Shown: positions 23,469 through 35,843 of the stretch, in pieces | Layout: each line of letters starts with the position of its first letter | Position numbering within the stretch: the stretch's first letter is position 1 | Assembly (NCBI RefSeq): GCF_003334405.1 | Contig: NZ_QOWM01000001.1 | Strand: one strand, 5' to 3' | Source: Escherichia coli | GTDB lineage: Bacteria; Pseudomonadota; Gammaproteobacteria; Enterobacterales; Enterobacteriaceae | Length of the DNA stretch: 64,000 nt | Translations under genes and position numbers: made by a program | Notes under the pieces: model-generated | Database searches by the model: none | What the model saw: only the letters and a program-made list of their open reading frames with translations | What the model was told of the DNA's origin: nothing

Positions 23469-24599
23469 ATGTTCCAGTTATCCGTACAGGACATCCATCC
23501 GGGCGAAAAGGCCGGAGACAAAGAAGAGGCGATTCGCCAGGTCGCTGCGGCGCTGGTGCAGGCCGGTAATGTAGCAGAAGGCTACGTCAATGGCATGCTG
23601 GCGCGCGAACAGCAAACCTCAACGTTCCTCGGCAATGGTATTGCTATTCCACACGGCACTACCGACACCCGCGATCAGGTGCTGAAAACCGGCGTTCAGG
23701 TATTTCAGTTCCCGGAAGGCGTCACCTGGGGTGACGGTCAGGTAGCGTACGTGGCAATCGGTATTGCTGCCAGCTCGGATGAACATCTGGGCCTGCTACG
23801 CCAGCTGACCCACGTACTGAGCGATGATTCCGTTGCTGAACAACTGAAGTCAGCAACAACAGCAGAAGAACTTCGCGCATTACTGATGGGCGAAAAGCAG
23901 AGTGAGCAGCTGAAGCTCGACAACGAAATGCTGACACTGGATATCGTCGCCAGCGATCTGCTGACTCTTCAGGCGCTGAACGCTGCGCGTCTGAAAGAGG
24001 CGGGGGCAGTTGACGCCACTTTCGTCACCAAAGCCATCAATGAACAACCGCTGAATCTCGGACAGGGTATCTGGCTGAGCGATAGCGCCGAAGGCAATCT
24101 GCGTAGCGCGATTGCGGTAAGCCGTGCGGCAAATGCTTTTGATGTGGACGGCGAAACGGCAGCCATGCTGGTGAGTGTGGCGATGAATGACGATCAGCCC
24201 ATCGCGGTTCTTAAGCGTCTCGCTGATTTATTGCTCGACAATAAAGCTGACCGCTTGCTGAAAGCGGATGCGGCAACGTTGCTGGCGCTGCTGACCAGCG
24301 ATGATGCGCCGACCGACGACGTGTTAAGCGCGGAGTTTGTGGTGCGCAATGAACACGGCCTGCATGCTCGTCCAGGTACCATGCTGGTCAATACCATTAA
24401 ACAATTTAACAGTGATATTACCGTGACAAACCTTGATGGTACCGGCAAACCGGCAAACGGACGTAGTCTGATGAAAGTTGTGGCACTTGGCGTTAAGAAA
24501 GGTCATCGCCTACGCTTTACCGCCCAGGGTGCAGATGCTGAACAGGCGCTGAAAGCAATCGGCGACGCTATCGCTGCTGGTCTTGGGGAGGGCGCATAA
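23469..24599 (+). CDS. fruB: Fructose PTS multiphosphoryl transfer protein (EIIA-Fru / FPr)
   Basis: 376-aa ORF with an EIIA domain and a C-terminal HPr-like domain (GLHARPG). Confidence 0.95.
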
Positions 24600-25553: not shown

Positions 25554-27245
25554 ATGAAAACGCTGCTGATTATTGACGCTAATCTCGGTCAGGCACGCGC
25601 CTATATGGCGAAGACCCTGCTGGGCGCGGCGGCGCGAAAAGCAAAACTGGAAATCATCGACAATCCGAACGACGCTGAAATGGCGATTGTTCTCGGTGAT
25701 TCCATCCCGAACGACAGCGCGCTGAACGGTAAAAATGTCTGGCTGGGCGATATTTCCCGGGCAGTTGCGCACCCTGAGCTGTTCCTGAGTGAAGCCAAAG
25801 GCCATGCGAAACCTTACACTGCGCCGGTCGCTGCGACAGCACCAGTTGCCGCCAGCGGTCCGAAACGCGTAGTTGCGGTGACTGCTTGCCCGACTGGCGT
25901 AGCACACACCTTTATGGCGGCTGAAGCCATTGAAACCGAAGCGAAAAAACGTGGCTGGTGGGTGAAAGTTGAAACCCGTGGTTCTGTTGGCGCGGGTAAT
26001 GCAATCACTCCCGAAGAAGTCGCAGCAGCGGATCTGGTGATTGTGGCGGCAGATATCGAAGTGGATCTGGCGAAATTTGCTGGTAAACCGATGTATCGTA
26101 CCTCTACCGGTCTGGCGCTGAAGAAAACCGCGCAGGAACTGGATAAAGCGGTTGCTGAAGCAACGCCGTATGAACCGGCGGGCAAAGCTCAAACGGCGAC
26201 CACTGAAAGTAAGAAAGAGAGTGCAGGCGCATACCGTCACTTGCTGACGGGCGTTTCTTACATGCTGCCGATGGTCGTTGCAGGTGGTCTGTGTATCGCG
26301 CTTTCTTTTGCTTTTGGTATCGAAGCGTTTAAAGAGCCGGGTACGTTGGCTGCGGCGCTGATGCAGATTGGTGGTGGTTCAGCCTTTGCGCTGATGGTGC
26401 CGGTACTGGCAGGTTATATTGCCTTTTCCATTGCCGATCGTCCGGGCCTCACTCCGGGTCTGATTGGCGGTATGCTGGCGGTCAGCACCGGTTCTGGCTT
26501 CATTGGTGGTATTATTGCGGGCTTCCTGGCTGGTTACATTGCGAAGTTAATCAGTACGCAATTGAAACTGCCACAGAGTATGGAGGCGCTGAAACCGATC
26601 CTGATCATTCCGCTAATTTCCAGTCTGGTGGTCGGTCTGGCGATGATCTACCTGATCGGTAAACCAGTTGCTGGCATTCTCGAAGGGCTGACTCACTGGC
26701 TGCAGACCATGGGGACTGCGAATGCGGTTCTGCTGGGGGCGATCCTCGGTGGCATGATGTGTACTGACATGGGCGGTCCGGTAAACAAAGCAGCGTACGC
26801 ATTCGGTGTGGGTCTGCTGAGTACTCAAACCTATGGCCCGATGGCGGCGATTATGGCGGCAGGTATGGTGCCACCGCTGGCAATGGGTCTGGCAACAATG
26901 GTGGCGCGTCGCAAATTCGACAAAGCGCAGCAGGAAGGTGGCAAAGCCGCTCTGGTATTGGGACTGTGCTTCATTTCGGAAGGTGCAATTCCGTTTGCTG
27001 CTCGTGATCCGATGCGTGTGCTGCCGTGCTGTATCGTGGGTGGGGCGCTGACTGGCGCAATCTCAATGGCGATTGGTGCGAAACTGATGGCACCGCACGG
27101 TGGTCTGTTTGTTCTGCTGATCCCTGGCGCTATTACGCCGGTATTGGGTTACCTGGTAGCAATTATTGCCGGTACGCTGGTGGCGGGTTTGGCCTATGCC
27201 TTCCTGAAACGTCCGGAAGTGGACGCAGTAGCGAAAGCAGCGTAA
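25554..27245 (+). CDS. fruA: PTS fructose-specific EIIB'BC component
   Basis: 563-aa ORF with IIB domains and a C-terminal membrane IIC domain. Confidence 0.95.
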   Translation: MKTLLIIDANLGQARAYMAKTLLGAAARKAKLEIIDNPNDAEMAIVLGDSIPNDSALNGKNVWLGDISRAVAHPELFLSEAKGHAKPYTAPVAATAPVAASGPKRVVAVTACPTGVAHTFMAAEAIETEAKKRGWWVKVETRGSVGAGNAITPEEVAAADLVIVAADIEVDLAKFAGKPMYRTSTGLALKKTAQELDKAVAEATPYEPAGKAQTATTESKKESAGAYRHLLTGVSYMLPMVVAGGLCIALSFAFGIEAFKEPGTLAAALMQIGGGSAFALMVPVLAGYIAFSIADRPGLTPGLIGGMLAVSTGSGFIGGIIAGFLAGYIAKLISTQLKLPQSMEALKPILIIPLISSLVVGLAMIYLIGKPVAGILEGLTHWLQTMGTANAVLLGAILGGMMCTDMGGPVNKAAYAFGVGLLSTQTYGPMAAIMAAGMVPPLAMGLATMVARRKFDKAQQEGGKAALVLGLCFISEGAIPFAARDPMRVLPCCIVGGALTGAISMAIGAKLMAPHGGLFVLLIPGAITPVLGYLVAIIAGTLVAGLAYAFLKRPEVDAVAKAA

Positions 27246-29628: not shown

Positions 29629-30879
29629 ATGGATATAATGAGAAGTGTTGTGGGGATGGTGGTGTTACTGGCAATAGCATTTCTGTTGTCAGTGAATAAA
29701 AAGAGCATCAGTTTGCGCACGGTTGGAGCCGCACTGCTGCTGCAAATCGCTATTGGTGGCATCATGCTCTACTTCCCACCGGGAAAATGGGCAGTAGAAC
29801 AGGCGGCATTAGGCGTTCATAAAGTGATGTCTTACAGTGATGCCGGTAGCGCCTTCATTTTTGGTTCGCTGGTTGGGCCGAAAATGGATGTCCTGTTTGA
29901 CGGTGCGGGTTTTATCTTCGCCTTTCGCGTACTTCCGGCGATTATTTTCGTTACTGCGCTCATCAGTCTGCTGTACTACATTGGCGTGATGGGGCTGCTG
30001 ATTCGCATCCTTGGCAGCATTTTCCAGAAAGCCCTCAACATCAGCAAAATCGAATCTTTTGTTGCGGTTACTACTATTTTCCTCGGGCAAAATGAGATCC
30101 CGGCGATCGTTAAACCGTTTATCGATCGCATGAATCGCAACGAGTTGTTTACCGCAATTTGTAGCGGGATGGCGTCCATTGCTGGTTCGATGATGATTGG
30201 TTATGCCGGAATGGGCGTACCAATTGACTACCTGTTAGCGGCATCGCTGATGGCGATCCCTGGCGGGATTTTGTTTGCACGTATTCTTAGCCCGGCAACC
30301 GAGCCTTCGCAGGTCACATTTGAAAATCTGTCGTTCAGCGAAACGCCGCCAAAAAGCTTTATCGAAGCGGCGGCGAGCGGTGCGATGACCGGGCTAAAAA
30401 TCGCCGCTGGTGTGGCGACGGTGGTAATGGCGTTTGTCGCAATTATTGCGCTGATCAACGGCATTATCGGCGGAATTGGCGGCTGGTTTGGTTTCGCCAA
30501 TGCCTCTCTGGAAAGTATTTTTGGCTATGTGCTGGCACCGCTGGCGTGGATCATGGGTGTGGACTGGAGTGATGCCAATCTTGCGGGTAGCCTGATTGGG
30601 CAGAAACTGGCGATTAACGAATTCGTCGCTTACCTGAGTTTCTCCCCATACCTGCAAACGGGCGGCACGCTGGAAGTGAAAACCATTGCGATTATCTCCT
30701 TTGCGCTTTGTGGTTTTGCTAACTTTGGTTCTATCGGTGTTGTCGTTGGCGCATTTTCGGCTATTTCGCCAAAACGCGCGCCGGAAATCGCCCAGCTTGG
30801 TTTACGGGCGCTGGCAGCAGCAACGCTTTCCAACCTGATGAGTGCGACTATTGCCGGGTTCTTTATTGGTCTGGCGTAA
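29629..30879 (+). CDS. psuT: Putative pseudouridine/nucleoside transporter, concentrative nucleoside transporter (CNT) family
   Basis: 416-aa membrane protein; paralogue of nupX at 32819. Confidence 0.92.
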   Translation: MDIMRSVVGMVVLLAIAFLLSVNKKSISLRTVGAALLLQIAIGGIMLYFPPGKWAVEQAALGVHKVMSYSDAGSAFIFGSLVGPKMDVLFDGAGFIFAFRVLPAIIFVTALISLLYYIGVMGLLIRILGSIFQKALNISKIESFVAVTTIFLGQNEIPAIVKPFIDRMNRNELFTAICSGMASIAGSMMIGYAGMGVPIDYLLAASLMAIPGGILFARILSPATEPSQVTFENLSFSETPPKSFIEAAASGAMTGLKIAAGVATVVMAFVAIIALINGIIGGIGGWFGFANASLESIFGYVLAPLAWIMGVDWSDANLAGSLIGQKLAINEFVAYLSFSPYLQTGGTLEVKTIAIISFALCGFANFGSIGVVVGAFSAISPKRAPEIAQLGLRALAAATLSNLMSATIAGFFIGLA

Positions 30880-30949: not shown

Positions 30950-31609
30950 TTACTGCATCATCCCGGAGAATTTATTCTCCGGGTCCATCTCCAGCGCCAG
31001 TCCTGACAACTGCTTTCTGTTTTTAATGAGATACCCTTTCTTGCTTTTAATTAATAAACCGTCGTGAATGAACTGCGCGAGAACATATAAAAGATGTCGA
31101 TAAGAAACGCCTAAATACTCTGCCGCTTGCGTATGCTTTTCGTGATAAAGATCACCTTCCTGCGAGAGTAATATAAATGCTGCCAGGCGATTCACTAACG
31201 GAAATGATTGATTCTGAGTTAAAGAAACAATATTACGATAATTTTTATGACTTAAGGTGACGCAGAGTTTTCGTAAAAATAGCGTGTCGTTTAATAACAG
31301 CGGACGGTAATGTTTCATAGGGAGCGCAAGGCACCAACACTCTTCAATAGCCTGCACCGCACGCGGTTCATGGTCTTTATCGATTAACTCAATCTCGCCA
31401 ATAAAACAGGGGGCGGCAAAGAAATCGATCAGCGACACGCGACCATTAGCTAGCGTGGCGTAAAGCCTGGCGCGGCCTCGCGTCAGGTAAAACAGCCAGG
31501 ACGGCTGTTGCCCTTCCTGCACAATGTAGTCACGCGCTAAAAAATGAAACAGCCGCGTATCGGCTGAAACATCCGTTAAAAAGCAATCCTTAAACGCGGA
31601 TTCACTCAT
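30950..31609 (-). CDS. yeiL: CRP/FNR-family transcriptional regulator YeiL
   Basis: About 219 aa from MSESAFKD; cNMP-binding-like fold with a C-terminal HTH; the ORF track is 13 codons longer. Confidence 0.88.
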
Positions 31610-31777
31610 CAATTGCTGCTTAAGATCATTATTGTGGATTTCTTTCACGATGTTTATCCGCTATGAGATTTCTCATATTTAGCATACGTACGCTGTTGTT
31701 AAGATTCAATCATCGGCCCGGTCGAATTTTCTTTGCTGTAGAAAAAATAACGCAACTGGAAACAGAGGAAATAAACA

Positions 31778-32719
31778 ATGGAAAAGAGAAAAATTATTCT
31801 GGATTGTGATCCGGGTCATGATGATGCTATTGCTATAATGATGGCGGCGAAACATCCGGCAATAGATTTATTAGGCATCACTATTGTAGCGGGTAATCAG
31901 ACGCTTGATAAAACATTAATTAATGGCCTGAATGTTTGCCAGAAACTGGAGATTAATGTTCCGGTTTATGCGGGGATGCCGCAGCCCATTATGCGTCAAC
32001 AAATCGTTGCCGATAATATTCACGGTGAAACCGGACTGGATGGCCCGGTATTCGAGCCGCTGACCCGCCAGGCAGAAAGCACTCATGCGGTGAAATATAT
32101 CATTGATACCCTGATGGCAAGCGATGGCGATATCACTCTGGTGCCGGTTGGTCCGCTTTCAAATATCGCGGTGGCAATGCGTATGCAACCCGCGATCCTG
32201 CCCAAAATCCGTGAAATTGTGCTAATGGGCGGCGCTTACGGTACAGGCAACTTCACGCCATCTGCCGAGTTCAACATCTTTGCCGACCCGGAAGCCGCAC
32301 GCGTAGTGTTCACCTCCGGCGTTCCATTAGTGATGATGGGCCTCGATCTCACCAACCAGACCGTTTGCACCCCGGACGTGATTGCTCGGATGGAAAGGGC
32401 AGGCGGCCCCGCCGGAGAGCTGTTCAGCGACATCATGAACTTCACTCTCAAAACGCAGTTCGAAAACTACGGCCTTGCTGGCGGCCCGGTGCACGACGCC
32501 ACCTGCATCGGTTATCTGATTAACCCTGATGGCATTAAAACCCAGGAGATGTACGTCGAAGTGGACGTCAACAGTGGCCCTTGCTATGGGCGTACCGTCT
32601 GCGACGAGCTGGGCGTTCTTGGCAAGCCCGCCAATACCAAAGTCGGCATCACTATTGATACAGACTGGTTCTGGGGATTAGTCGAAGAGTGCGTGCGCGG
32701 CTACATCAAAACCCATTAA
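31778..32719 (+). CDS. rihB: Pyrimidine-specific ribonucleoside hydrolase
   Basis: 313-aa ORF with the N-terminal DCDPGHDDA nucleoside hydrolase signature. Confidence 0.93.
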
Positions 32720-32818: not shown

Positions 32819-34138
32819 ATGGATGTCATGAGAAGTGTTCTGGGAATGGTGGTATTGCTGACGATTGCGTTTTTACTGTCAGTAAACAAGAAGAAGATCA
32901 GCCTGCGTACCGTTGGCGCGGCGTTAGTGTTACAGGTCGTGATTGGCGGCATTATGCTTTGGTTACCGCCAGGGCGTTGGGTCGCTGAAAAAGTCGCTTT
33001 TGGCGTGCATAAAGTGATGGCGTACAGCGACGCGGGTAGCGCATTTATCTTCGGTTCTCTGGTCGGACCGAAAATGGATACCTTATTTGATGGTGCAGGA
33101 TTTATCTTTGGTTTCAGGGTGTTACCGGCAATTATCTTCGTCACCGCGCTGGTGAGTATTCTCTACTACATCGGTGTGATGGGGATTTTAATTCGAATTC
33201 TCGGCGGTATCTTCCAGAAAGCATTAAATATCAGCAAGATCGAGTCATTCGTCGCGGTCACCACCATTTTCCTCGGGCAAAACGAAATTCCGGCAATCGT
33301 CAAACCCTTTATCGATCGTCTGAATCGCAATGAATTATTTACAGCGATTTGTAGTGGCATGGCCTCGATTGCTGGTTCGACAATGATTGGTTACGCCGCA
33401 CTGGGCGTGCCTGTGGAATATCTGCTGGCGGCATCATTAATGGCGATCCCTGGCGGGATCTTGTTTGCCCGCCTGTTAAGCCCGGCAACGGAATCTTCGC
33501 AGGTTTCCTTTAATAACCTCTCTTTCACCGAAACACCGCCAAAAAGCATTATTGAAGCCGCTGCGACAGGGGCAATGACCGGGCTGAAAATCGCCGCAGG
33601 TGTGGCAACAGTGGTGATGGCATTTGTTGCAATAATTGCGTTGATTAACGGTATTATCGGCGGCGTTGGTGGCTGGTTTGGTTTTGAACATGCCTCGCTG
33701 GAGTCCATTTTAGGTTACCTGCTGGCTCCACTGGCGTGGGTGATGGGTGTGGACTGGAGTGATGCGAATCTTGCCGGGAGTTTGATTGGACAGAAACTGG
33801 CAATAAATGAATTTGTCGCTTATCTCAATTTCTCACCCTATCTGCAAACGGCTGGCACTCTCGATGCTAAAACTGTGGCGATTATTTCCTTCGCGTTGTG
33901 CGGTTTCGCTAACTTTGGTTCTATCGGGGTGGTGGTGGGGGCGTTTTCTGCGGTTGCGCCACACCGTGCGCCGGAAATCGCCCAGCTTGGTTTACGGGCG
34001 CTGTCGCGGAAACTGTATCCTTCAAGAAAGCTATATACCAGGCCCGCCATAAAACCATCGTCAGCACCAAAACTGTCTACTGTCGTATGCGCTGGCGCGG
34101 TCAGCAAAAATTGTTCTCCATCCTTTTCGCTGCAATAA
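32819..34138 (+). CDS. nupX: CNT-family nucleoside transporter NupX with an aberrant 3' end (last ~21 expected codons replaced by 44 unrelated codons); possibly a pseudogene
   Basis: Colinear with paralogue PsuT to residue 395 (...PEIAQLGLRAL), then diverges; the 3' extension is antisense to yeiI coding sequence. Confidence 0.8.
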   Translation: MDVMRSVLGMVVLLTIAFLLSVNKKKISLRTVGAALVLQVVIGGIMLWLPPGRWVAEKVAFGVHKVMAYSDAGSAFIFGSLVGPKMDTLFDGAGFIFGFRVLPAIIFVTALVSILYYIGVMGILIRILGGIFQKALNISKIESFVAVTTIFLGQNEIPAIVKPFIDRLNRNELFTAICSGMASIAGSTMIGYAALGVPVEYLLAASLMAIPGGILFARLLSPATESSQVSFNNLSFTETPPKSIIEAAATGAMTGLKIAAGVATVVMAFVAIIALINGIIGGVGGWFGFEHASLESILGYLLAPLAWVMGVDWSDANLAGSLIGQKLAINEFVAYLNFSPYLQTAGTLDAKTVAIISFALCGFANFGSIGVVVGAFSAVAPHRAPEIAQLGLRALSRKLYPSRKLYTRPAIKPSSAPKLSTVVCAGAVSKNCSPSFSLQ

Positions 34139-34983
34139 ACTGACTCATCGGGCAAATAAACAAACAGTTGCTGAACACCTTGCTGATGCAATGCATTCAC
34201 TGCGGTATTACGGTCAGCATCGCTGGTGATCGCCTGTCCCCATAAAATTTCCAGCTCCGGTAAAGTGGGTTTCAGGGTGTGAATATGCGCCAGCCAGTGT
34301 TTGATTTTGCCCGCTTTGAATTCTGAAACGGTATCGACAAACACCGGGATTTCATCAGCGAGGGTAAAGACCCATTCCAGCGCCTCGGCTGTCAGGTTGC
34401 AATCAGCCAGTACCACGCCCGCATGACGAAGTAAATCGCGCGACCCGTTCAGTAGTTGCGGTGTCAACTGTTCCAGCAGATGGGTATCGTTAATCGCCAG
34501 CACGGTTTGATCGTCTCGATTGGCAATTGCCAGATACGTCGATGTGCTTTGACCATGCAAACGAACGCAGCCGGAGACATTCACGCCGGCACGGCGCGTT
34601 TCTTCCAGGAGCATTTCGCCATAAAAGTCATCGCCAATCACTGAAAGCAAATGGACGTCACGGCCTAACAGCGCCAGATTGTGGGCGATGTTGCGTCCCA
34701 CGCCGCCCGCTGAGCAATGAATTGTACCGGGATGAGAAGCCGATTGCGGGTAACGGATATCCGCCATCCCGCGAATATCCATATTGATTGTCCCCACCAC
34801 TACGCAGTATTCCTGCTCGGTGAGAATGTAACCTTTGCCTTTAATCCGGCCTTTGCGCATTAAATCCATAATATGCGCCGCAACGCGCGAACGGCTGATT
34901 TGCAGCATGTCCGCAATTTCGTTCTGCTGAATCAGCGGGTTACGCCGTAAAATTGCAAGGATCTCCTTTTCCCGGTTATTCAT
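33838..34983 (-). CDS. yeiI: HTH plus PfkB-family sugar kinase YeiI with an aberrant 3' end; possibly a pseudogene
   Basis: N-terminal HTH and PfkB kinase core up to ...FGADDGFMAGLVYSFLEGYSFRDSA; the final ~52 codons are antisense to nupX and lack the conserved PfkB C-terminal segment. Confidence 0.8.
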   Translation of the reverse strand: MNNREKEILAILRRNPLIQQNEIADMLQISRSRVAAHIMDLMRKGRIKGKGYILTEQEYCVVVGTINMDIRGMADIRYPQSASHPGTIHCSAGGVGRNIAHNLALLGRDVHLLSVIGDDFYGEMLLEETRRAGVNVSGCVRLHGQSTSTYLAIANRDDQTVLAINDTHLLEQLTPQLLNGSRDLLRHAGVVLADCNLTAEALEWVFTLADEIPVFVDTVSEFKAGKIKHWLAHIHTLKPTLPELEILWGQAITSDADRNTAVNALHQQGVQQLFVYLPDESVYCSEKDGEQFLLTAPAHTTVDSFGADDGFMAGLVYSFLEGYSFRDSARKPSWAISGARCGATAENAPTTTPIEPKLAKPHNAKEIIATVLASRVPAVCR

Positions 34984-34985
34984 CT

Positions 34986-35843
34986 TCAGGCTACCGCTTT
35001 TTCAGTTTGTTGCGCTTTCAGCCAGGCGATCTCTTCTGCCCAGATATCCGGGTTGATGGTTTCGAGGATCAGCGGAATGCCGTCGAAACGGTCGTCCTGC
35101 ATGATCCAGCGGAACGCATCATGACCGATATTGCCTTCACCGAGGCTATGATGGCGGTCAACGCGGCTGCCAAAGGTGCTTTTCGCATCGTTAAGGTGCA
35201 TCCCGCGCAGATACTTAAAGCCGACAGTACGGGCAAAATGCGCGAATGTTTTCTCGCATTCGGCTGGAGTACGCAAATCATACCCGGCAGCGAAAGCATG
35301 GCAGGTATCAATGCAGACGCCGACGCGGGATTTATCTTCCACGCCGTCGATAATCGCCGCGAGATGTTCGAATTTAAACCCTAAGTTACTGCCCTGACCG
35401 GCGGTGTTTTCTATCACCGCTGTCACACCTTGAGTTTTATCCAGCGCAATGTTGATGGATTCGGCAATACGCGCAAGGCAATCCTCTTCTGAAATCTGCA
35501 TCAGATGGCTGCCAGGGTGGAAGTTGAGCAAAGAAAGCCCCAGCTGTTCGCAACGCTGCATTTCATCTATAAAGGCATCGCGCGATTTTTCCAGAGCTTC
35601 AGTGACCGGATGTCCGAGGTTAATCAGATAACTGTCGTGGGGAAGAATTTGCGCCGATGTGTAGTGATATTTTTCACAGGCGGCTTTGAATTCATCGATG
35701 GTTTGCGTCGTGAGCGGTGCGGCACGCCACTGACGTTGGTTTTTGGTGAACAAGGCAAACGCGGTTGCGTCGATTTCGGCGGCGCGAATTGCGGCATTTG
35801 CCAGACCGCCAGCAGCACTAACGTGCGCTCCAATGTATTTCAT
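34986..35843 (-). CDS. nfo: Endonuclease IV (AP endonuclease)
   Basis: 285-aa ORF; xylose isomerase-like TIM-barrel AP endonuclease. Confidence 0.95.

Follow-up and report, generated by a model that had tools for sequence, protein, structure and literature searches.

Two events of known kinds very probably lie side by side at the 3' end of nupX in the analysed Escherichia coli DNA (64 kb in all, referred to below as the window): a 281-bp deletion between short direct repeats, which fused nupX with the neighbouring convergent gene yeiI, and an older, separate gene conversion, which left an island of identity between nupX and its paralogue psuT. The deletion is recent and confined to one lineage.

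Genetic organization of the region

The analysed segment of the window corresponds to the fruBKA-psuKGT-yeiL-rihB-nupX-yeiI-nfo region of E. coli, as deduced from the list of open reading frames (ORFs), with gene names taken from the annotation of strain S1-INA-02-A. According to the same sources, the psuT gene (yeiM; 29629-30879, plus strand) is intact and encodes a CNT-family nucleoside transporter of 416 amino acids, a paralogue of NupX; its sequence is identical to that of psuT of strain K-12. It is followed by the ORFs of yeiL (30950-31648, minus strand) and rihB (31778-32719, plus strand). Next come two ORFs, each of which is truncated and then extended: nupX (32819-34138, plus strand; 439 amino acids), recognized from the ORF list, its translation and Pfam matches, and yeiI (33838-34983, minus strand; 381 amino acids), recognized from the ORF list, a comparison of the fused and intact translations, and Pfam. 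The ORF of nfo (34986-35843, minus strand) closes the segment. NupX has been described as a low-efficiency transporter of uridine and cytidine, present beside the efficient NupC and NupG, and PsuT has been assigned to pseudouridine on the basis of its operon context (PMC11241209).

Comparison of the entire 64-kb window with S1-INA-02-A revealed 17 SNPs and a single indel of 281 bp. A 7.3-kb part of the window is identical to the NCBI draft contig JANJGP010000004.1 (GCA_024592625.1).

Structure and distribution of the deletion junction

For all of the best-matching E. coli genomes, the alignment across the junction is broken into two parts, whose joint span exceeds the query by 281 bp; in nupX-yeiI alleles without one of the REP elements the excess over the query is 230 bp. 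Alignments with PK8241, STEC316 and S1-INA-02-A showed that the DNA absent from the window comprises the last 66 nt of nupX, a 106-nt spacer and the last 109 nt of yeiI. The undeleted sequence (L003) carries the repeat ACGGGCGCTG(G/T)CG at positions 23995 and 24276, i.e., with a start-to-start spacing of exactly 281 bp. The two arms of this pair (repeat family D3) are 13 nt long and match at 12 of 13 bases; the 10-bp stretch ACGGGCGCTG occupies nt 1176-1185 of nupX in the first arm, and the second arm lies in the 3' portion of yeiI, the convergent gene. The same three alignments place the deletion junction of the window at 33994-34003, where the 10-bp direct repeat ACGGGCGCTG is retained in a single copy. 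This copy is followed by the yeiI-side T, and the crossover therefore falls within the 10 perfect bases. The k-mer diagnostic of the junction in the window is GGTTTACGGGCGCTGTCGCGG. The length of the indel thus equals the spacing of the repeats and one copy is kept in the deleted allele, which is the anatomy of a microhomology-mediated deletion.

The ACGGGCGCTG(G/T)CG pair is the longest direct repeat detected in the 700-bp region, and only five exact direct repeats of at least 10 nt, the junction pair among them, are present in the 2.4-kb nupX-yeiI segment. Simulation of 400,000 random deletions in the same DNA gave a probability of P = 2.25e-5 for junction microhomology of at least 10 nt. 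The 106-bp spacer carries two REP elements in inverted orientation (a BIME; pair I2, 15 nt, 93% complementary). Folded as single-stranded DNA, the deleted sequence reaches -65 kcal/mol (z = -2.6 in relation to shuffled sequences), with a long-range stem that is imperfect and a weaker centroid structure. There is no Chi site close to the junction (the nearest are at 27176 and 37550), so these sites do not account for a local recombination hotspot. A scan for promoters and terminators near the junction was empty, with no terminator-like site detected within 33600-34400 and thus none left between the two ORFs.

The junction is extremely rare in the available sequences. It was not found as one contiguous match in any of the 5,426 complete E. 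coli genomes, and an exact search of metagenome contigs with a 38-nt junction sequence gave no match. The exact 439-aa product of the fused nupX is encoded by only two NCBI draft contigs (232,701 and 359,949 bp), without a protein accession, and one of the two belongs to GCA_024592625.1, the assembly that matches the window perfectly over 7.3 kb; both records carrying the junction are draft assemblies, possibly based on one shared read set. An exact look-up of the 381-aa product of the fused yeiI returned no record, probably because gene callers chose another end for this ORF owing to its overlap with nupX. Given the absence of the junction from complete genomes and metagenome contigs, and its presence in two contigs only, the event is considered private to one clone.

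The same rarity could be taken as a sign that the deletion is an artefact of assembly or sequencing and that nupX and yeiI are really intact: the junction is on record in draft assemblies alone, complete genomes and metagenome contigs having yielded none, and the lost segment contains REPs, a type of repeat scattered over the genome that can disturb assembly. However, the junction is placed at a 10-bp repeat flanked by unique coding DNA, outside the REPs, and the same fused product is encoded by both of the long contigs mentioned above. Moreover, ten bases are below the k-mer length usually applied by assemblers, which counts against an artefact, and the junction has the anatomy of a textbook biological microhomology deletion. 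We therefore regard an artefact as improbable, and the deletion as most probably genuine.

Predicted effect of the deletion on NupX and YeiI

Intact NupX has 416 amino acids in K-12, PK8241 and S1-INA-02-A, and can be aligned over residues 2-415 with the solved CNT structures 5L26 and 3TIJ. The protein encoded in the window keeps native residues 1-395 (32819-34003), while the last 21 have given way to 44 residues translated from yeiI antisense sequence. Pfam detected all three CNT domains in it (Nucleos_tra2_N, Gate and Nucleos_tra2_C), the last of them incomplete, covering positions 1-198 of the 213-position model. The window NupX is thus a truncated member of the CNT family (NupC type). The lost residues correspond to the conserved C-terminal end of the CNT structures, including the motif LSNLMSAxIAGxF.

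The YeiI protein is altered in the same manner. Its native residues 1-326, with the HTH domain and the PfkB kinase domain (including VDSFGADD), are kept, and its last 36 native residues are replaced by 55 residues from the antisense strand of nupX; the PfkB match is also incomplete, covering positions 2-285 of 302 in the model, and a complete PfkB kinase would include the C-terminal segment beyond the GAxD motif. Since conserved C-terminal parts of the domains are lost and replaced by antisense read-through, both genes are probably inactive and their products, NupX and YeiI, probably non-functional. The window lacks the 106-bp REP/BIME spacer found between nupX and yeiI in the normal arrangement, and the two read-through ORFs overlap in antisense orientation over 301 bp (33838-34138), which is a new arrangement deduced from the ORF coordinates. 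In annotation, nupX and yeiI of this DNA should be described as pseudogenes generated by one event, rather than as genes for a transporter of 439 and a kinase of 381 amino acids.

The psuT/nupX identity island

The starting observation was a 33-bp block of perfect identity between psuT and nupX, set within visibly diverged flanks and ending exactly where the similarity of nupX to psuT ends. All of these elements were confirmed. The exact 33-mer occurs at two sites of the window only (30781-30813 in psuT and 33971-34003 in nupX), with no match in 100 shuffled sequences, and the perfect run is in fact slightly longer, 36 nt on the plus strand of both genes (30778-30813 in psuT and 33968-34003 in nupX). 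The similarity to psuT stops at 34003/34004, beyond which nupX continues into the antisense strand of yeiI. The two genes align without gaps, with 78.9% identity at the DNA level and 88% at the protein level. In full-length nupX alleles the perfect run shared with psuT reaches 38 nt (nt 1150-1187 of the gene), and it is the longest identical run of the pair, followed by runs of 23, 21, 20 and 20 nt.

A run of at least 38 nt has a probability of P = 0.026 when mismatches are placed uniformly, and of P = 0.010 when their number at each codon position is kept. The island thus exceeds chance, but only moderately, the run-length statistics for the K-12 pair alone being modest (P = 0.01-0.03). A clearer signal was obtained at synonymous sites. 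The last 102 nt of intact nupX are 92% identical to psuT, compared with 78% in the remainder of the gene, and where both genes have a degenerate codon for the same amino acid, they use the identical codon in 26 of 32 cases within the last 34 codons versus 154 of 317 elsewhere (Fisher P = 3.6e-4). Identity in sliding windows had been proposed as a check on whether codon constraints explain the block; for the best 34-codon window, a permutation test on psuT/nupX synonymous identity, corrected for the choice of window, gave P = 0.0017.

The block was then followed through a degenerate search for the peptide PEIAQLGLRAL in one genome per species, which identified both paralogues in several Escherichia lineages and single copies elsewhere. 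In K-12, SCPM-O-B-8794, E1V33, E. whittamii and MOD1-EC7003 the paralogues are 95-100% identical at nt 1150-1187 and 77-82% identical in the flanks. In Escherichia strain SCPM-O-B-8794 the perfect tract extends over 137 nt (nt 1078-1214), the two genes being 78% identical elsewhere. The phylogenetic signal of the 3' end is discordant: the last 66 nt of K-12-type nupX show 97.0% identity to B2-type psuT versus 84.8-89.4% to other nupX alleles, and this likeness takes in the stop codon TGA and the first downstream bases. The first 1149 nt of nupX display normal orthologue relations, the reverse of those found for the last 66 nt.

The island is best explained by ectopic gene conversion between psuT and nupX, which the original prediction had put forward as one of the options for its origin. 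The tract is bounded by diverged flanks, is visible at synonymous sites and is closer to the paralogue than to orthologues, and a constraint on its nucleotides probably does not explain it. We favour conversion over an embedded element because of the excess of synonymous identity, the recurrence of the island in five Escherichia lineages, the 137-nt tract and the discordant phylogeny of the last 66 nt. The 3'-terminal segment of psuT and nupX, of which the island forms the 5' part, would have been exchanged at least once, presumably before the split of the Escherichia species, and later exchanges would have followed in individual Escherichia lineages. Within Escherichia, however, the pattern may reflect either ancestral conversion or a locally low synonymous rate, both of which are compatible with the present data set.

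The original prediction also offered a constrained embedded element as the origin of the block. Such an element, for example an RNA, a regulatory signal or a site bound by a protein, would be shared by the two genes and kept by selection on the nucleotides themselves. It would be in line with the near-invariance of the block in both paralogues throughout the five Escherichia lineages and with its rank as the longest identical run of the pair. Against it, an Rfam scan of the whole window gave no match in psuT or nupX, and on either strand the block folds no better than shuffled sequences (z = 0.07, 0.88 and 0.24). Synonymous variants within it (CCA, GCT, CAA and CGC) are present among E. coli alleles, and in nupX alleles with ACGCGCGCTG or CAA the perfect run is split into unexceptional pieces of 8-17 nt. 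Synonymous variation is likewise free in other genera: over the 33 positions of the block, 1-9 differences were counted in Citrobacter, Klebsiella, Izhakiella and an Enterobacteriaceae MAG, single-copy orthologues among them, and the peptide PEIAQLGLRAL is retained. Finally, the two copies of C. amalonaticus are most diverged within the block, with 82% identity versus 92% for the rest of the gene. A constrained element is hence very unlikely to underlie the island, and gene conversion remains the preferred explanation.

Mechanism of the deletion and its relation to the island

In the ancestral state, the 10-bp repeat was present once in nupX and again 281 bp downstream, in the convergent yeiI. 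Misalignment of these short direct repeats, either by slipped-strand mispairing as the DNA was replicated or by template switching independent of RecA, would then have led to the loss of 281 bp, and the palindromic REP DNA located between the repeats may have aided the process. As judged from the anatomy of the junction, strand misalignment between short direct repeats is the most likely mechanism.

The REP elements might also suggest a more direct role, namely that an enzyme acting on REP/BIME sequences, such as a REP-associated tyrosine transposase, made the deletion instead of slippage. Two inverted REPs are indeed situated inside the deleted segment, and the REP content of the nupX-yeiI region varies among strains by 51 bp; both end-points, however, lie in coding DNA, at a direct repeat and about 70-100 bp outside the REPs, which makes this route highly improbable in comparison with strand misalignment.

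The original prediction had also linked the breakpoint itself to gene conversion or homology-associated deletion between the paralogues. That the junction was made by psuT/nupX recombination or gene conversion, with the block as the crossover site, is almost certainly wrong: the block does end at the junction, exchange of the 3' region is seen in other lineages, and the single gene of E. albertii switches from psuT-like to nupX-like without yeiL-rihB-nupX, but the window retains psuT, yeiL, rihB and nt 1-1185 of nupX in the same order as other strains, with no chimera and no loss of yeiL-rihB. Beyond the junction, moreover, the sequence is that of the yeiI antisense strand, neither psuT nor psuT-flanking, and the missing DNA is precisely the 281 bp between the nupX and yeiI repeats. 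Thus, with psuT, yeiL and rihB intact, nupX was joined at a 10-bp repeat to yeiI, 281 bp downstream. E. albertii and C. koseri carry psuG-psuT-yeiI-nfo without yeiL-rihB-nupX, and in the E. albertii gene the change from likeness to psuT to likeness to nupX falls between nt 1218 and 1243. Paralogue-mediated loss may consequently have occurred in E. albertii, and not in the window.

The island and the breakpoint have separate origins, and the island is older, because the same block occurs in full-length nupX alleles. The comparison with other strains that had been proposed for the supposed link between the two gave this answer directly, the island being found with full-length nupX in K-12, PK8241 and others. 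The island only seems to end at the breakpoint because the rest of nupX is deleted and the repeat arm coincides with the last 10 nt of the island. Such a coincidence is unremarkable; as a rough estimate from the five repeat pairs of the 2.4-kb segment, which amount to ten arms, the chance of an arm falling within the 38-nt block is about 15%.

A further connection was considered, in which conversion from psuT would have created the G of ACGGGCGCTG, and with it the repeat, in K-12-type nupX. It was suggested by the occurrence of ACGCGCGCTG in several E. coli alleles and was rejected, since G (ACGGGCGCTG) is equally found in nupX of MOD1-EC7003, E1V33 and E. whittamii. The distribution among these alleles indicates that G is probably the ancestral base and C the derived one.

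Comparison with other nupX lesions and known systems

Other lesions of nupX, which decays repeatedly in E. coli, were identified: O157:H7 strain FRIK804 has a frameshift, ATCC 8739 an internal stop codon and strain 5264 an IS1 insertion, and a strain of B2 ST131 has lost nt ~67-1203, so that the first 66 nt alone are annotated as nupX (junction homology of 3 nt). The lesion of the window is independent of these and different from them, and it also damages yeiI. It adds one independent case to those that mark nupX as dispensable in E. coli; both nupX and yeiI are non-essential genes.

It is conceivable, though rather doubtful, that the psuT and nupX 3' ends and the REPs downstream of them form a recurrent site of ectopic recombination in Escherichia and its relatives. 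If true, such a site would drive local concerted evolution of both transporters, as well as gain or loss of the yeiL-rihB-nupX pyrimidine-nucleoside module, which E. albertii and C. koseri lack, the switch of the E. albertii gene falling within this same tract. Whether a strain has the module would then reflect a polymorphism controlled by recombination instead of independent decay events. The deletion and the island themselves belong to known kinds of event, and their significance beyond annotation is small. The deletion provides a clean natural example of loss between 10-bp direct repeats that hits two convergent genes at once, and the island is a small, well-bounded case of local conversion between old paralogues, which could be used as a test case for conversion-detection methods.

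The deletion hotspots of lacI are the classical short-direct-repeat deletions of E. coli. RecA-independent events between short direct repeats are known in this species (PMC5426353, PMC7145654). The deletion of the window resembles deletions of this kind in having perfect, GC-rich 10-bp repeats at its ends, one of which is kept, a length equal to their spacing, and palindromic DNA between them; secondary structure in the intervening DNA favours such events but is no prerequisite, and its part in the present case may be minor or substantial. It differs from the usual examples in that the arms are located in two convergent genes, so that one event truncates both and creates an antisense overlap.

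For the island, the closest known counterpart is the conversion of duplicated genes, as in tufA and tufB of Salmonella and E. coli, which undergo concerted evolution by ectopic gene conversion. The common features are a short tract of near-identity within paralogues that are otherwise ~78% identical, its visibility at synonymous sites, its lineage-specific character and a discordant phylogeny. The psuT/nupX tracts differ in being only about 40-140 nt long and restricted to the 3' end, the remainder of both genes having diverged freely, which points to conversion that is local and occasional and not gene-wide.

Probable sequence exchange between psuT and nupX

The 33-nt block shared by the paralogous transporter genes psuT and nupX (window positions 30781-30813 and 33971-34003) lies within a longer identical stretch in Escherichia strain SCPM-O-B-8794, the sequence of which is about 92-93% identical to that of K-12. 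In this strain, psuT (4492-5742 of its locus) and nupX (7693-8943) share 137 nt of perfect identity at gene nt 1078-1214, while the remainder of the genes is 78% identical. This stretch, which spans the block, clearly has the character of a recent gene-conversion tract. In S1-INA-02-A, the closest complete genome, nupX carries a G-to-T substitution within the block (position 23990 of its locus, corresponding to window position 33989), which changes GGT to TGT and thus glycine to cysteine in NupX. Even the nearest relative thus has a block that departs from the psuT sequence.

The psuT and nupX stop codons, together with approximately 50 nt downstream, were compared across loci L001-L012, and three types of 3' end were distinguished: (i) CTGGCGTAA+tgctcgattt, (ii) TTAGCGTAG+tgYgcRattt, and (iii) TTAGCTTGA+gtNtcattgcc. 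The third type was found at psuT and at nupX, in different strains. At nupX it is accompanied by an additional 51-bp REP element, so that the spacer between nupX and yeiI is polymorphic in its REP content (106 vs. 55 nt).

Decay of the transporter genes

Several strains carry damaged copies of nupX. In E. coli O25:H4 ST131 strain CU568-3 a remnant (8406-8574 of its locus) consists of the first ~66 nt of the gene fused to the last ~48 nt, with about 1.14 kb deleted, junction homology limited to TAA, and yeiI intact. In many B2 genomes psuT is the sole part matching the query. Further independent lesions were found in O157:H7 FRIK804 (a frameshift; L006, 3721-4970), ATCC 8739 (an internal stop codon; L010, 3720-4970) and strain 5264 (an IS1 insertion). 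The nupX gene appears to be dispensable, with repeated decay. In Escherichia sp. MOD1-EC7003 the damage affects psuT, of which the last 207 nt are left downstream of psuG (6696-6902 of its locus); nupX is intact.

Chi sites and RNA features of the window

The whole window contains 17 Chi sites (GCTGGTGG), where ~2 would be expected, and the sites to either side show the usual strand bias; the scan found none between 27184 and 37549. Rfam matches comprise the REP-derived naRNA4/CssrE (50003-50080) and the Peptidase-S11 RNA motif near pbpG (61729-61809), both on the plus strand, as well as tRNA-Pro (680-753) and the L25 leader (4469-4494), both on the minus strand. All four are expected in this E. 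coli region.

Related loci in other species and genera

The two transporter copies of C. amalonaticus (4526-5776 and 7677-8509 of its locus) are ~92% identical over nt 419-1049, vs. 78% for the E. coli pair, which suggests wider homogenization or a younger duplication. A 390-bp scaffold of Prolixibacteraceae bacterium JC049 was near-identical to a Klebsiella grimontii gene over the ~180 nt compared, and is probably contamination of this Bacteroidota assembly.

In E. albertii NBRC 107761 (6618-9517 of its locus) and C. koseri (168-4137) the gene order is psuG-psuT-yeiI-nfo, and yeiL-rihB-nupX is absent. In E. albertii the transporter gene resembles psuT as far as nt 1218; from nt 1243 it resembles nupX, and this resemblance extends to the REP downstream. 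Such a pattern is consistent either with crossing-over of the two paralogues within the 3' tract or with a single copy being the ancestral state.
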